Assembly: GCA_045863235.1 (NCBI GenBank)
Contig: BTUM01000053.1
Coordinates: forward strand, 1-55,043
From: Candidatus Xenobia bacterium
GTDB taxonomy: Bacteria > Vulcanimicrobiota > Xenobia > Xenobiales > QWHO01
Direction: 5' to 3'
DNA length: 55,043 bases
Made by a program: the position numbers and the translations under genes. This document shows, one piece after another, positions 40,444 through 55,043 of this stretch; within the stretch, counting starts at the first letter, position 1, and every line of letters begins with the position of its first letter. The notes below the pieces were generated by a model that saw nothing but the letters and a program-made list of their open reading frames with translations, had not been told where the DNA came from and ran no database searches.

Positions 40444-40746
40444 ATGTCCGAACGCCTCTACTTCCGCACCCGACAGTGGGTCCCGGTCAGCAACACCGAG
40501 GTGGTCACGCTCTACGAGACCGACCTCGAGCACCGGGTGCTTCGCTACCTGGTCGAAGGAGGAGGGCAAACCGACCTTTTTCGCGGCCCGAGCTACCGTC
40601 TGGAGCCGTCCTCGGCCCTCGAGCCCTGCCCGGCCGAGGATTTTCTCAGCCGCTGGAGCCCCGACCGTTCCCCCTCGCGGACCGCCCTGCCCGATCTGGT
40701 AGACCAGGAGGGCGACGGTCCCTCCGAAGAAGTCATGCCTTCGTGA
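40444..40746 (+). CDS. Hypothetical protein
   Basis: 100-aa ORF overlapping the next gene's start (GTGA). Confidence 0.55.
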   Translation: MSERLYFRTRQWVPVSNTEVVTLYETDLEHRVLRYLVEGGGQTDLFRGPSYRLEPSSALEPCPAEDFLSRWSPDRSPSRTALPDLVDQEGDGPSEEVMPS

Positions 40747-41537
40747 GCGATTCGAGGCGACGGTGGATCTGCGTGGGGGAGGAGCCAGCGGTGCGCCTGG
40801 CTGCGCTCGACTACGGTCCGCGCGATGCTCCCACTTTGTTCTTTCTTCACGGCGGCGCCGGTAGGGCGACCCAGTGGCGCCACCAGATGGACTACTTCTC
40901 CAGCCGCTTTCGGGTCATCAGCTATGACTTCCGGGGCCACGGCGAGAGCGAGATCGCTCCCACCGGCTACACCTTCGACCTGATGGTGCGAGATTTCGAG
41001 CTGGCCCTGGAGGCCCTGGAGGTGCCCTCGCGCTTTGCGCTGATCTCCCACTCCTTTGGCGGGGCGGTGGCGGCCGGCTATGCCGCCAAGCGGCCCGAGC
41101 GGCTCGAGCGGCTGGCGCTGGTGGCCACCGCCGGCGAGATCCCCCTCTCGCCCCTGACCTCGGTTCTGCTCAAGTGTCCCGTGGTCATGCTGGAAGCCGT
41201 GCGCAAGGTGTTCAAGAACCAGATCAACTGCCCGCCCGGAGTGCTCAAGCAGCTGGTTCCCAACCTCATGCGCTGGCGCGGCTGGGACCTCTACGCCAGC
41301 ATCAACGTGCCCACCCTGGTTCTGTCGGGAGAGCTGGACATGCTGACCCGGCCCCGGGCCATGCGCCGGATGGCTGACCTGATTCCCCATTGTGAGTTCG
41401 TCAGTCTGCCCTTTTGCGGGCACCTGCCCCAGCTCGAGCGTCCGGCCGCGGTCAACCGCATTCTGGAGCGATTCGTGGAGCCGGAGCGAAAGCGCACCTG
41501 GAGGGGCACGCTGGACGCGCCCGAGGGGGCTGCTTGA
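40743..41537 (+). CDS. Alpha/beta hydrolase
   Basis: FLHGG, DFRGHGES, SHSFGG nucleophile elbow, GELD, GHLPQLE. Confidence 0.9.
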   Translation: MSDSRRRWICVGEEPAVRLAALDYGPRDAPTLFFLHGGAGRATQWRHQMDYFSSRFRVISYDFRGHGESEIAPTGYTFDLMVRDFELALEALEVPSRFALISHSFGGAVAAGYAAKRPERLERLALVATAGEIPLSPLTSVLLKCPVVMLEAVRKVFKNQINCPPGVLKQLVPNLMRWRGWDLYASINVPTLVLSGELDMLTRPRAMRRMADLIPHCEFVSLPFCGHLPQLERPAAVNRILERFVEPERKRTWRGTLDAPEGAA

Positions 41538-43183
41538 CCGACTGGGCCCGCCACTACGACGAAGGGGTCCCTTCCCAGCTGACCTTCACCCCTCGCCCGC
41601 TCACCGAGCTTCTGGCCGAGTCTTCCCGTCGCTGGCCCCGTCGCGCGGCCATCTGGTCCGAGCAAGGGGCCCTGAGCTATGAGCAGCTCCTGGCCGAGGT
41701 GCGCAAGTTCGCCTCTGCGCTCGTCAGCATCGGCCTGGCGCCGGGAGAGCGGGTGGCCCAGCTTCTGCCCAACTCGCCCCAGGCGCTGGTGGCTCTCTAC
41801 GGCACCCTGTGGGCAGGAGGGGTGGCCACGCTGGTGGCTCCCGAGACGCCCATCGCGCTGCTCGAGCGCCAGCTCAAGGACGCTCGCCCCCGGGTCGGGG
41901 TGGTCCCCTCGCCGCTCTCGCTCGAGCTCGAGGAGGTGCTGCGCCGGGCCAACATCGAGTCCTTCATCCTCAGCTCGGGCCGCGAGTACACCCGTTACCT
42001 GCGGGGCTGGCTTCGGGTGGCGGCCCGGCTGGCCGCCGGTCGACCCGAGCGGCGCTACCTTCGCTGGCGCCGACTGATGCGCGAGGCGAACGAGACGTTC
42101 CCGCGCGTCGACGTCGATCCTGCGGCCCCGGCGGTGATCGTCTACACCGGTGGCACCACCGGCTCGCCCCGGGGCGTGGTGCTCTCGCACCGGGCCCTGG
42201 TGGCCAACACCGAGCAACTGTCCGCCTGGGACGCTCGGCTGCGTCCGGGTCAGGAGCGCTTGCTCTGCGCGCTGCCCTTCTACCACGCCTACGGTTTGTC
42301 GGCGGCGGTGAATTTGTCCATGGCCAACGGGGGCACCTTGCTGCTTCCCCCCGAGCCCACTCCCGACTCGATCCTCGAGACCATCTCCCGCTTTCGCCCC
42401 TCCCTCTTTCCCGGCGTGCCGGTGCTCTACGCCGCCTTGCTCAATACCCCACGGCTGCGCTCCTATGGTCTGAGCAGCATCCGAGCCTGCATTTCCGGAG
42501 CCGCGCCTCTGCCGGTGGAGATCCAGGAGAGCTTTGAAAAGGTGAGCAAGGGTCGGCTGGTCGAGGGCTACGGGCTGACGGAGGCGGGCCCGGTGACCCA
42601 CGCCAACCCGCTGGAAGGTCCACGCCGAAGCGGCTCCATCGGCCTGCCTCTGCCTGGCACCGAAGCCCTGGTGGTGGATCTCGAGAGCGGGGAAGAGTTG
42701 CCTCACGGAGAGGTGGGCGAGCTGCTCGTGCGGGGTCCTCAACTCATGGATGGTTACTTTGAGGCTCCCGAGGCGACCGCCAGGGTGCTTCGGGGCGGCT
42801 GGCTGCACACGGGGGATATGGCCCAGCGCAATCAAGATGGATTCTTCTACCTGATCAACCGGCGCGGAGACGTCTTGCGCCGCGACGATCGCCTGGTGTT
42901 CCCGCGCGACGTCGAGGAGGTCATCTACGAGCACCCGGCCGTGCAGGATGCCGCCGTGGTGGGCTGGCCCGCGGCCGGAGAGGGGCCCGGCCCCCACCCC
43001 TGCCAGGAGCTGCGCGGCTTTGTCTGTCTGCGGCCCCAGCGCCAGGCCTCGGGGGAGGAGATCCGGTCGTTTTGCGAGCGCCGCCTGCCCGCCTCGATGG
43101 TGCCCGCCAGGGTTGAGATTCTGGCCCAGCTTCCCCGGACGCGGCTGGGGAAATTGTTAAGGCGAGAACTCGGACGTTCATAA
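41534..43183 (+). CDS. Long-chain fatty acid--CoA ligase (AMP-binding)
   Basis: YTGGTTGSPRG, EGYGLTE, WLHTGD, LPRTRLGK. Confidence 0.9.
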   Translation: MTDWARHYDEGVPSQLTFTPRPLTELLAESSRRWPRRAAIWSEQGALSYEQLLAEVRKFASALVSIGLAPGERVAQLLPNSPQALVALYGTLWAGGVATLVAPETPIALLERQLKDARPRVGVVPSPLSLELEEVLRRANIESFILSSGREYTRYLRGWLRVAARLAAGRPERRYLRWRRLMREANETFPRVDVDPAAPAVIVYTGGTTGSPRGVVLSHRALVANTEQLSAWDARLRPGQERLLCALPFYHAYGLSAAVNLSMANGGTLLLPPEPTPDSILETISRFRPSLFPGVPVLYAALLNTPRLRSYGLSSIRACISGAAPLPVEIQESFEKVSKGRLVEGYGLTEAGPVTHANPLEGPRRSGSIGLPLPGTEALVVDLESGEELPHGEVGELLVRGPQLMDGYFEAPEATARVLRGGWLHTGDMAQRNQDGFFYLINRRGDVLRRDDRLVFPRDVEEVIYEHPAVQDAAVVGWPAAGEGPGPHPCQELRGFVCLRPQRQASGEEIRSFCERRLPASMVPARVEILAQLPRTRLGKLLRRELGRS

Positions 43184-43282
43184 ATCGGCAACAGATTTCA
43201 AGATCTGCTAATGTCCAGTTCACGACCTCTCAGCCCTGTGGTGGGATAGAATCCTCAGAGAAGCGAGCGGAGGAACCCACTG

Positions 43283-43990
43283 ATGGAAATTCAACCCACC
43301 CAGGCTGTCACCAGCTCCCTGACCTTCCCCCAGGTTTTCAACGGCTCGATCACGCCGGCCGCCGCGTTGACGGTCGAAGCCTCGCCCTGGAGGACTCCCG
43401 AGCGCTCGCTGGCCAACGAGAATCTCCATCAGTTCTGGAGTGAGCTGTCTTTGGAGCAGCCGGTGCTGCCTTTTTTCGGGCGCTTCCTGCAGGGGGCCGG
43501 CGTCCCGGGCGCGGGCGGGACCCATGCCGAGGGGGAGGGGGACCATCGCCCGGCTCCCGTGACGGAAGGCAATACCGGGGACGCTAGCGGCCCGGCGCGG
43601 CCCCCCGCTTTGACGACGGCGGTGGGGGAGGGGGACCAGCAGACCCCCCCCGTTCTCGCCGGGAACAGTGGTGACGCCAGTCTCGGCTCCGCGCCGCGCT
43701 CGTTCTCGATGGCCAAGCACGAGACCGATCGAGATGAGCCGGCTGTGGTGGCTCAACCTGTGGTTGCGCCTGGCGGGGTCTGGCCCCGCTCGGCCAGCCA
43801 GGCCAAGCACGAGACCGATCGGGACGAGCCAGCCGTGGTCGCTCAGCCCGTCGTGGCGTCGGGCGGGGTCTGGCCCCGCTCAGCCAGCCAGGCCAAGCAC
43901 GAGACCGATCGAGACGAGGCTCCGGTCCAGGGCCAGCTGGGCCAGGCGGGCAACCAGGCGGCCTTCTTCAATCGCTTTCTGAAAGCTTGA
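43283..43990 (+). CDS. Putative graspetide (microviridin-class) multi-core RiPP precursor
   Basis: Leader-like PFFGRFL (43469-43489; cf. microviridin PFFARFL); three (S)xAKHETDRDE repeats; overlaps the ATP-grasp ligase start; SD GGAGG. Confidence 0.8.
   Translation: MEIQPTQAVTSSLTFPQVFNGSITPAAALTVEASPWRTPERSLANENLHQFWSELSLEQPVLPFFGRFLQGAGVPGAGGTHAEGEGDHRPAPVTEGNTGDASGPARPPALTTAVGEGDQQTPPVLAGNSGDASLGSAPRSFSMAKHETDRDEPAVVAQPVVAPGGVWPRSASQAKHETDRDEPAVVAQPVVASGGVWPRSASQAKHETDRDEAPVQGQLGQAGNQAAFFNRFLKA
43694..43918 (+). repeat. 90-bp intragenic tandem repeat (30 aa) carrying AKHETDRDE
   Basis: gccaagcacgagaccgatcg at 43712, 43802 and 43892. Confidence 0.92.
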
Positions 43991-44943
43991 GCATCCTGAT
44001 CGTCACCTACTCCGAGGACCACGAGGGGATCGACCTGGTGGCCTCGGAGCTGGTTCGTCTGGGGCACGAGGTGATGCGTCTGGACACCGACCGTTACCCC
44101 CAGGAGGTGACCGTGAGCACTCGGTACGAGGGCTCCTCCCGACGCCGTCTGGTTCGGGTCGGCCACGAGACGATCTCCCTGGAGGACTGCACGGCCGTCT
44201 GGTACCGGCGCTTTCGAGCCGGCGAGAAGCTGTTCGAGGCAGGGCTGGGTGATCAGCTGGATGGGGCCTATAAGGAATCCCGCCAGACCCTCTGGGGCAC
44301 CATCGCCAGCCTGCCCGTCAAGCAGATGAATCCCTGGCAGGCCGTGCGCCTGGCCGACTTCAAGGAGGTCCAGACCGACTGGGCGCTGGATGAAGGCTTG
44401 AAAATGCCGCGCACCCTCTTCAGCAACGATCCCGCGCAGGTGCGCGACTTCTACGCCGACCTGGGCGGCCGGATGGTCGCCAAGATGCAGTCCAACTTCA
44501 CGGTCGTTCGCCAGGGCGATCATCAGGTGGTCTACACCAGCCCCGTGACGGCGGAGGATCTGGCCAGCCTGGACGGCCTTCGCTATGCTCCCATGATCTT
44601 TCAAGAGCAGGTGGACAAGAGGCTCGACGCCCGGGTCATCGTAATCGGAGACGAGCTCTACGGGGCCTGCGTCGATCCGGGGGACGAGCTGGACTGGCGC
44701 AAGGAGGGCGAGACCTTGATGCCTCGCTGGACCCCCTGGGAAGTTCCTCGCGAGGTTCGCGGGCCTCTGCTGGGCTTGATGGGCCGGCTGGGCCTGTGCT
44801 ACGGGGCTGCCGATTTCGTCGTTACGCCGGACGGGGAGTGCCTGTTCTTGGAGGTCAACGCCTCGGGTGAGTGGCTCTGGCTCGAGCAGCAGGCAGGCCT
44901 GCCACTCTCGGCTGCTCTGGCCCGGTTTCTGGCCGGGAGATGA
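43987..44943 (+). CDS. mvdD: MvdD/MdnC-like ATP-grasp RiPP maturase
   Basis: ILIVTYSED...RLDTDRYP, AVWYRR, PRTLFSNDP, KMQSNF...VVYTSPV, PMIFQE, DWRKEG, LCYGAADF, FLEVN.GEWLWLE; collinear with the microviridin ester-forming ligase MdnC as I recall it. Confidence 0.88.
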   Translation: MSILIVTYSEDHEGIDLVASELVRLGHEVMRLDTDRYPQEVTVSTRYEGSSRRRLVRVGHETISLEDCTAVWYRRFRAGEKLFEAGLGDQLDGAYKESRQTLWGTIASLPVKQMNPWQAVRLADFKEVQTDWALDEGLKMPRTLFSNDPAQVRDFYADLGGRMVAKMQSNFTVVRQGDHQVVYTSPVTAEDLASLDGLRYAPMIFQEQVDKRLDARVIVIGDELYGACVDPGDELDWRKEGETLMPRWTPWEVPREVRGPLLGLMGRLGLCYGAADFVVTPDGECLFLEVNASGEWLWLEQQAGLPLSAALARFLAGR

Positions 44944-54601: not shown

Positions 54602-55043
54602 ATGTCGCAGATCAACGGGTTCGGTCAGGTCAACAACAACGTTTCGTTCCGCTTCGCGTCGGTGGGCGTGCGGGCCGATCAGGCCCAGGCGGGCGCCTTC
54701 GCCGGTCCGGTGGACGGGAGCCTGGCGGTCCGGGCCTTCATCGAGCAACTGAGTGGCTCGCTCGACCAGTTACACGCCGGCTGGGGAGGGATCGCGGGCG
54801 CGGTTCCCCAGCGTCCCCAGCCCTTCTTCGGGCACCTCCTCCAGGGCCAGCACCCGGGTTACGCCACGACCCAGAAGTATCCCAGCGACGCCGAGGATGG
54901 CGGCGGTGGCGGCGGCGGCGGCATCGTGACCACGCTCAAGTTCCCTTCCGATAGCGAGGACGGCGGAGGGGGCGGCGGCATCGGAACCACCCAGAAGTAT
55001 CCCTCCGACGGCGAGGACGGCGGTGGCGGCGGCGGCATCGGCA
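54602..55043 (+). CDS. Multi-core microviridin-type precursor peptide (partial; runs off the right edge)
   Basis: SD AAGGAG, ATG 54602; manual translation gives ...PQPFFGHLLQGQHPGYATTQKYPSDAED-G8-IVTTLKFPSDSED-G6-IGTTQKYPSDGED-G6-IG...; absent from the ORF track because there is no stop. Confidence 0.9.
   Translation, partial: MSQINGFGQVNNNVSFRFASVGVRADQAQAGAFAGPVDGSLAVRAFIEQLSGSLDQLHAGWGGIAGAVPQRPQPFFGHLLQGQHPGYATTQKYPSDAEDGGGGGGGGIVTTLKFPSDSEDGGGGGGIGTTQKYPSDGEDGGGGGGIG

Follow-up and report, generated by a model that had tools for sequence, protein, structure and literature searches.

Which rings does a single ATP-grasp ligase close in a precursor peptide whose tandem cores match neither the microviridin nor the plesiocin pattern? 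The question is raised by a locus at positions 43283 to 44943 of contig BTUM01000053.1 (assembly GCA_045863235.1) from a Candidatus Xenobia bacterium; the window is the whole stretch of 55,043 nucleotides that was analysed, and genome and contig are called G000 and C53 below. The cluster consists of two genes, both on the forward strand like all features of the locus given here: a multicore precursor of 235 residues, P0001 (43283..43990), and a peptide ligase of 318 residues (43987..44943) that begins at a TTG and shares 4 nucleotides with the precursor at its stop. Judged from its genes, this is a genuine graspetide locus in which the precursor is coupled to one intact ester ligase of the MdnC/MvdD type, and this ligase most likely staples each core into rings. 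As to which rings, we give an even chance to ester rings anchored on a six-residue [Thr/Ser]1-Glu6 loop, with optional Ser(-2)-Asp8 and Thr7-Asp10 esters.

A sequence-only reading had already proposed a graspetide locus with an MvdD-like ligase, and the comparisons made here agree. The best NCBIfam model for the ligase is TIGR04184 (MvdD) at 308.8 bits, which does not reach the cut-off of 475; weaker models are MvdC (239.4 bits) and RimK (40.8 bits), and the threshold of Pfam PF21068 is exceeded. MdnC is the closest solved structure by sequence (E 6.9e-68, with MdnB-type entries and CdnC at 1e-49 to 3e-51 and PsnB at 1.3e-14). It is also the best fold match of an AlphaFold model with a mean predicted local distance difference test (pLDDT) value of 92.9, at a template modelling (TM) score of 0.91; MdnC entries take Foldseek ranks 1-8, and PsnB appears from rank 18 onward. 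RimK falls far lower than MdnC both by sequence and by fold. Across 120 homologues K126, K166, Q206, D236-W237-R238 and D276 do not vary, and E289 and N291 hardly do; following the MdnC literature, we take these to be the catalytic residues. The window protein is thereby a member of the RiPP-macrocyclase branch of ATP-grasp enzymes (RiPPs being ribosomally synthesised and post-translationally modified peptides) with an intact active site. Its leader-binding residues are intact too: the leader contacts reported for MdnC, E191, D192, N195 and V182 (PMC7823629), align with E190, D191, S194 and V181.

Within the MvdD clade the enzyme belongs to a small and divergent group. Seven of the 169 matches at E <= 1e-60, the window protein counted, are at least 64% identical to it, and a ligase 63% identical is present at locus L040 (Vulcanimicrobiota bacterium). 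A quick maximum-likelihood tree was made from 90 rows (43 of the 120 listed homologues plus the ligases of the loci compared), with support from the Shimodaira-Hasegawa-like approximate likelihood ratio test (SH-aLRT). Here the seven form one clade (SH-aLRT 100, stem 0.82) inside groups of 24 rows (97) and 28 rows (81); where precursors are visible in these groups, they carry T-x-[RA]-Y-P-S-D-S-D cores with a single ligase in the roughly 4 kb examined. MvdC-type ligases are placed elsewhere in the tree, and those of group 5 (L064, L065) far away. By its position in this tree the ligase branches off, on a long stem, from single ligases of the marinostatin type, which agrees with the earlier description of an MvdD-like ligase; family models and fold speak against RimK. 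Of the positions conserved to at least 80% in the remaining 113 sequences, the subclade alters 22, E179, E214, T218 and L253 among them; E179, 97% conserved elsewhere, is His or Arg, and E214 is Asp. These substitutions at conserved positions suggest that the substrate site has been remodelled. Two further loci are worth recording beside this clade. On contig C84 of the same genome (L001:6314-9161), a locus of the marinostatin type combines seven TxxYPSDxD cores that have no Lys with one ligase, which shares about 50% identity with that of the window and is a natural control enzyme for it; and in G004, another genome of the class, a sister ligase (L071:5756-6697, contig C107) has no recognisable precursor within 9 kb.

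The adjoining precursor has a leader and cores with donors ahead of acceptors. A Shine-Dalgarno-like GGAGG (43269..43273) lies 9 nucleotides upstream of its start. The leader, residues 35-69 (43385..43489), is conserved both in the family alignment and in a codon comparison with G003, a second genome of the same genus, where 36 codons hold 0 non-synonymous and 11 synonymous changes. It ends in PFFGRFL (43469-43489), and the motif PFFGRF[LM] is present in all five precursors of the family. Behind the leader follow core 1, THAEGEGD (43520..43543), core 2, TTAVGEGD (43613..43636), core 3, SFSMAKHETDRDE (43700..43738), and cores 4 and 5, both SASQAKHETDRDE (43790..43828 and 43880..43918). A linker anchor stands 9 residues ahead of the donor of core 2 (GNTGDA, 43568..43585) and of core 3 (GNSGDA, 43661..43678), and the candidate docking motif AFFNRFL (43961..43981) lies close to the C-terminus. 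The AKHETDRDE copies begin at 43712, 43802 and 43892, exactly 90 bp or 30 residues apart; Tandem Repeats Finder reports a period of 90 with 2.3 copies and a score of 332, and every difference between the three 9-codon copies is synonymous. The open reading frame with PFFGRFL, the regularly spaced AKHETDRDE copies and the overlap with an ATP-grasp gene were thus described correctly from the letters alone. The count of three cores has to be raised to five, since the two upstream cores had been overlooked, and a second, leader-like motif, AFFNRFL, has to be added to PFFGRFL. The precursor has no match among Pfam or NCBIfam models, its predicted structure is disordered (pLDDT 0.44), and in the ESM Atlas comparison all matches stayed below 0.9 by features.

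Relatives of this precursor are few. Orthologous loci were found in three of 44 genomes of the class, namely the window genome, G003 (ligase identity 88%; precursor P0004, 76% identical to P0001) and G004 (ligase identity 64%), and the stop/start overlap of leader-bearing precursor and ligase is retained in all three of the genomes with a subclade ligase. A profile search of 1.84 billion representatives gave four matches, of which three are family members; the fourth, P0127, was discarded as false, being a long repeat protein without leader or core. Scans with the ligase alignment yielded five loci in metagenome contigs and four in genome contigs and no new precursor type, and a plasmid search with P0126 gave chance matches only. 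A search for AKHETD-type cores, as had been proposed, covered 401 genomes of the phylum: the codons for AKHETDRDE are present in 2 of them (the window genome and G003, three copies each), and a reversed control pattern gave 0 matches among the matches listed, so that the occurrence is more than chance. The window, G003 and G004 loci together with the profile-search members make up the family set of five precursors and 24 cores used below.

When these cores are lined up, a common register appears. Every E-x-D site has Ser or Thr at -5 and Ala at -3 (24 of 24 cores), and position 7 is always Gly or Thr, so by alignment the shared core is [T/S]1-x-A-x-x-E6-x-D8, cores 1 and 2 included. Two kinds differ in their endings: x-G-E-G-D in 18 of the 24 and K-H-E-T-D-R-D-E in six; the window precursor combines two GEGD cores with three KHETD cores. 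Lys4, Thr7, Asp10 and Glu11 are confined to the six KHETD cores; Ser at -2 occurs in 11 cores, every KHETD core among them; and residue 2 is His, Thr, Met, Gln and Gln in window cores 1 to 5. The two kinds can be tied together from outside the core, as the anchor G[ND][TS]G[DN]A stands exactly 9 residues ahead of position 1 in nine of nine occurrences, with both kinds of core, and the P0126 core R-R-S-F-S-D-A-I-G-E-G-D aligns with window P-R-S-F-S-M-A-K-H-E-T-D; these two observations make GEGD and KHETD cores homologous without a gap. The KHETD core thus has the look of the family scaffold to which K, T, D and E were added at microviridin spacing, and it offers four donors and four acceptors. 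The earlier position-for-position alignment of K-H-E-T-D-R-D-E with the microviridin core leaves out of account that the flanking anchor holds KHETD cores to the same register as T-x-A-[IVL]-G-E-G-D cores. It also takes the Glu for a replacement of part of the YP turn; this Glu is common to all 24 cores, and the Lys, the second Thr and the final Asp/Glu occur in only six. It may be added that the conserved anchor itself holds a spare donor and a spare acceptor.

The favoured reading can then be set out as follows. The ligase would bind the PFFGRFL helix, and probably the C-terminal AFFNRFL as well, phosphorylate acidic side chains using adenosine triphosphate, and then close omega-esters in all five cores. 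The obligate ring would be a six-residue lactone between donor 1 and Glu6, the counterpart of the inner ring of plesiocin. In cores with Ser at -2 a Ser(-2)-Asp8 ester could form an outer hairpin ring, and in KHETDRDE cores Thr7-Asp10 may supply a small ring of the microviridin type; Lys4 most likely remains free. Residue 2 would take the P1 place in an inhibitor loop that mimics a serine-protease substrate, by analogy with position 5 of microviridin. The family would have derived from marinostatin-type loci of the lineage (T-x-[RA]-Y-P-S-D-S-D cores, single ligase), with the ligase remodelled. Support for a donor 1-Glu6 ring as the obligate one comes from several sides. Plesiocin is reported to close its six-residue T32-E37 ring first (bioRxiv 2021.03.09.434688), and the orthologue cores T-Q-A-[LIV]-G-E-G-D resemble catalogued group-2 cores such as TTQAIGEE (PMC8939145 supplement). 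Catalogued cores such as ITMAIGEGGG offer just one Thr-Glu pair (PMC13097080 supplement), six-residue TxxxxD lactones are described in microviridin class 2 (PMC12848669), and one CdnC enzyme is reported to add extra esters beside the microviridin core (PMC10125368). In one-gap alignments of family cores with YPSD cores, made either as a contraction (E6 = D7 of YPSD) or as an insertion (D8 = D7), GEGD cores favour the contraction in 8 of 8 comparisons.

A number of points weigh against this reading. For KHETD cores the same procedure favours the insertion in 8 of 8 comparisons, with a narrow margin against sister cores and a lead of 13-18 points when the comparison is with canonical two-ligase cores. 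Asp8 varies no more than Glu6 does, and as several cores have a single donor, one of the two conserved acids must be idle. K4, T7, D10 and E11 stand exactly at microviridin spacing from D8. The P1 residues would be His, Gln, Thr or Asp, unlike the microviridin P1 residues discussed in PMC7823629. The five precursors are not independent (P0125 hardly differs from the L009 precursor, and the repeats of one gene are homogenised among themselves), P0125 and P0126 carry no genomic context in which a pairing with subclade ligases could be seen, and the tail motif is missing from three of the five. Lastly, the tree is a quick one without bootstrap and has no group-2 ligase among its rows.

Several of these points lead directly to the strongest alternative, which we regard as possible but clearly less probable: an expanded microviridin ring, the model of the sequence-only reading applied to all five cores, in which donor 1 and Asp8 close an eight-residue lactone, Thr7-Asp10 adds a small ring in KHETDRDE, and Glu6 serves recognition only. 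The insertion alignment of KHETD cores speaks for it, core-only scores against YPSD cores peak at its offset (11.0-11.2) in two of four sets, the first ring made by MvdD is reported to have an Asp acceptor (PMC7823629), and no GEGD core has both partners of the small ring together. To this extent the older comparison of K-H-E-T-D-R-D-E with K-Y-P-S-D-x-E-E keeps some ground, with the core-only scores tied at about 11. The expanded ring leaves unexplained, however, why Glu6 is conserved in 24 of 24 cores and why the GEGD loop is so like the group-2 inner ring, and the contraction favoured by GEGD cores speaks against it.

The Lys residue of the KHETD cores invites a further and quite improbable alternative, a tetracyclic hybrid cage with Ser1-Glu6, Ser(-2)-Asp8 and Thr7-Asp10 esters and a Lys4-Glu11 lactam, made by the window ligase or by the MvdC-type enzyme of a nearby cluster acting in trans. 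All eight residues are constant in six of six KHETD cores from two genomes, a canonical microviridin precursor begins 9.7 kb downstream and appears to run on into contig C57, where an MvdC/MvdD pair follows, and G003 has a like arrangement, including the start of a second ligase gene. Against this, the window ligase falls in the ester clade, the six cores stem from two close orthologues (which makes their invariance weak evidence), and four rings within 13 residues would be sterically demanding. The amide ligase MvdC, moreover, is described in a review (PMC7823629) as dependent on both lactones and on the TxKxPSD motif, and there is no lactam ligase in the locus, so the Lys-Glu amide carried over from microviridin in the sequence-only reading is not upheld.

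It is slightly less probable still that only the GEGD cores are cyclised, the KHETDRDE repeats having expanded recently and either staying unmodified or acting as a spacer. KHETD cores are indeed restricted to 2 of the 401 genomes, and the usual Thr donor is replaced by Ser in them. Ser donors are also found in three of the five GEGD cores of P0126, though, and KHETD cores preserve donor, Ala, Glu and Asp in register, with positions 3-11 changing only synonymously both between genomes and between repeats. That the enzyme is RimK-like or inactive and the upstream frame not its substrate is very improbable indeed, as a score under the TIGR04184 cut-off and altered residues such as E179 and E214 stand against RimK trailing MdnC in sequence and fold, intact catalytic residues, and a precursor overlap kept wherever a subclade ligase was found in the three genomes.

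Returning to the favoured reading, one part of it concerns the end of the precursor. The C-terminus reads AAFFNRFLKA, and SAFFNRFLKA in the G003 orthologue; the last 10 codons show 0 non-synonymous changes against four in the preceding 14-codon linker, and with only one synonymous change this is a weak test. FFxRFL has five matches in 16.7 million six-frame residues of the genome, two of them within the precursor frame. In the family the tail motif is limited to the two of five precursors that have KHETD cores. AFFNRFL thus seems, from its likeness to the leader, to be a candidate second docking motif, which would place the docking signal of the enzyme at both ends of the cores. A complex prediction for the ligase with the last 32 precursor residues scored 0.02 against a mark of 0.32, which is not evidence either way on docking. 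Other RiPP classes have recognition sequences flanking their cores. For graspetides, a leader is reported to function at the C-terminus, a position termed unnatural, and engineered N- and C-terminal leaders increased full modification of a three-core construct (both PMC13003496, 2026). A literature search for natural C-terminal graspetide leaders showed none evident from titles or abstract beginnings, and in a supplement alignment of PMC8939145 the thuringinin row has an internal repeated leader, which may be an artefact or a precedent. A bolder version of the whole picture, which we consider unlikely, would have an MvdD-type ligase that switched to a plesiocin-like loop, cores that in this species also gained the microviridin cage residues, for a three- or four-ring hybrid topology without a described counterpart, and a natural C-terminal docking motif that raises completion of the distal cores.

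The surroundings of the two genes were examined as well. An alpha/beta hydrolase (40740-41537) and an acyl-coenzyme A (acyl-CoA) ligase (ending at 43183) came into question as tailoring genes; G003 has them in synteny, but the 17 kb surrounding the locus in G004 showed neither, and because of this lack of conservation they are not counted as parts of the cluster. Tailoring-type neighbours have been noted for group 1 (PMC13097080). There is no C39 peptidase in the locus, and two such genes lie on other contigs; the product may work as a single multivalent chain. The locus showed no sigma-70-like promoter, and three terminator-like sites are within the range of shuffled sequences. Contigs from metatranscriptome X14 span 43284-44010 and hardly anything beyond it (12 of 30 bins), although contigs cannot show transcription, and those from RNA run X5 cover 30 of 30 bins, as DNA would. 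The precursors of this lineage have long N-termini rich in Ser, Thr, Asn and Gln, which might, speculatively, be export signals.

The same genome holds other graspetide-like genes. At 54602-55043 (+) of the window lies a canonical multicore microviridin precursor with a PFFGHLL leader, split by the contig end, which appears to continue on contig C57 (1-1017, L002) with at least 15 TxKxPSD cores and then the MvdC/MvdD pair. Between the TxKxPSD cores of L002:1-1017 and of L031:68-1501 there are VK[IV]RADDD repeats that resemble the Lys99-x3-Asp103 site of corallotide, as given by its mutant primers, and a similar precursor is already in the table of PMC13097080 as group 1. A leader-only gene with no core and a degenerate PHFGRF end is found on contig C45 (9479-9688, minus strand, = L085:1489-1698), and likewise in genome G002 (L081:1405-1620) and in G003 (L086:1489-1698); the products of 69-71 residues are 59% identical over 29 residues to the window leader, and could by that likeness serve as free activators in trans. 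Contig C114 (9085-9870, L003) has a stand-alone precursor of microviridin type with five TxK[YF]PSD cores and no ligase match on the contig. On contigs C45 (L005:5335-8623) and C108 (L006:5492-7831), paired divergent ATP-grasp genes lie behind a long Glu-Lys repeat protein, possibly a lactam substrate. Outside this subject, a 45-bp tandem repeat with 4.2 copies occupies positions 1-193 of the window, at the contig start. FHIPEP (FlhA/SctV-type) matches that pass the cut-off lie on contigs C27, C80, C3, C1, C106 and C107; one of them is full-length and five are partial.

As for novelty, the core had not been recognised among described graspetide groups, and this held for the readable catalogue parts (PMC8939145, PMC13097080), the originals of Lee 2020 and Ramesh 2021 lying outside the comparison. 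KHETD and GEGD-type terms gave 0 matches in the 11 readable supplements of PMC8939145, in which control motifs were found and to which its FASTA file does not belong. In the PMC13097080 table of 21,584 predicted graspetides in 43 groups, KHETD gave 0 matches and GEGD 14, none of them in the window family, among the rows covered, which run into the ungrouped part as far as a start coordinate of about 76,000, with long cells covered to 400 characters. A full-text literature search for the core motif returned only unrelated papers among the matches listed. By these comparisons the locus apparently represents a small, uncatalogued graspetide family with an ester ligase derived from MvdD and [T/S]xAxxExD cores, from which the KHETDRDE core is derived, and with a candidate docking motif at the C-terminus of the precursor. 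Among graspetides, with their 43 groups, uncharacterised core types have become common. As the family is small, its value is mechanistic and for engineering, not one of ecological breadth. Graspetide ligases are reported to be specific for the core of their own group (bioRxiv 2021.03.09.434688); here an MvdD-clade ligase stands beside cores with a group-2 loop, and its close sister on C84, in the same genome, still stands with YPSD cores. This pair is suited to mapping what controls ring size, with about 20 subclade-specific candidate positions. If the C-terminal FFxRFL is a true docking site, it would be a natural version of the two-leader design engineered in 2026 for multicore modification, and if the products are protease inhibitors, P1 His and Gln would point to unusual targets.

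Compared with known systems, the closest is the marinostatin-type, ester-only part of group 1, which shares the PFFxRFL leader, one MvdD-clade ligase, tandem T-x-A cores and acids spaced two apart. The window differs in having no YPSD (its cores do not match TxxYPSDxD) and instead the core [T/S]xAxxExD, a long-stemmed and remodelled ligase and a second, C-terminal leader-like motif. With the tricyclic microviridins of group 1 it shares a PFFARFL-type leader, but none of its five cores is TxKxPSDx(D/E)(D/E), and instead of paired ester and amide ligases there is one ligase match on C53, the MvdC/MvdD pair on C57 being a separate cluster. Class 3 microviridins (myxomiditide, MyxF) have (KxxE)n before TxKxPSD; the window core has K-x-E and no TxKxPSD. 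Chryseoviridin and the class 2 microviridins (CdnC) are a precedent for one MvdD-type ligase, six-residue rings and mixed cores in one precursor, but they keep a TxKxPSD core, whereas the window precursor has none and its candidate acceptor is Glu. Plesiocin and group 2 are multicore with a single ligase, and their inner ring has its counterpart in the T-x-A-[IVL]-G-E loop that GEGD cores carry. Only this inner T-x-A-x-G-E part of TTxxxxEE is matched, as most window cores have no adjacent TT or EE for an outer ring and the KHETD loop differs; the group-2 leader is LFIEDL, not PFFGRFL, and the window ligase, far from PsnB, is outside the PsnB clade. In group 5 (T-K-T-x4-E-x-D-D repeats, judging from the catalogue rows compared) the spacing of donors and acceptors is identical to S-x-[ST]-x4-E-x-D, and 11 of the 24 cores show the TxTxxxxExD spacing with Ser in place of Thr; the leader differs, a conserved TKT and the DD end are absent, and the window ligase does not cluster with L064, whose precursor is listed as group 5, or with L065. 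The engineered ThfA15 fuscimiditide precursor (PMC13003496), finally, has recognition sequences on both sides of its tandem cores; it is an artificial construct with a different ligase, whereas the second motif of the window precursor is natural and its docking role predicted.

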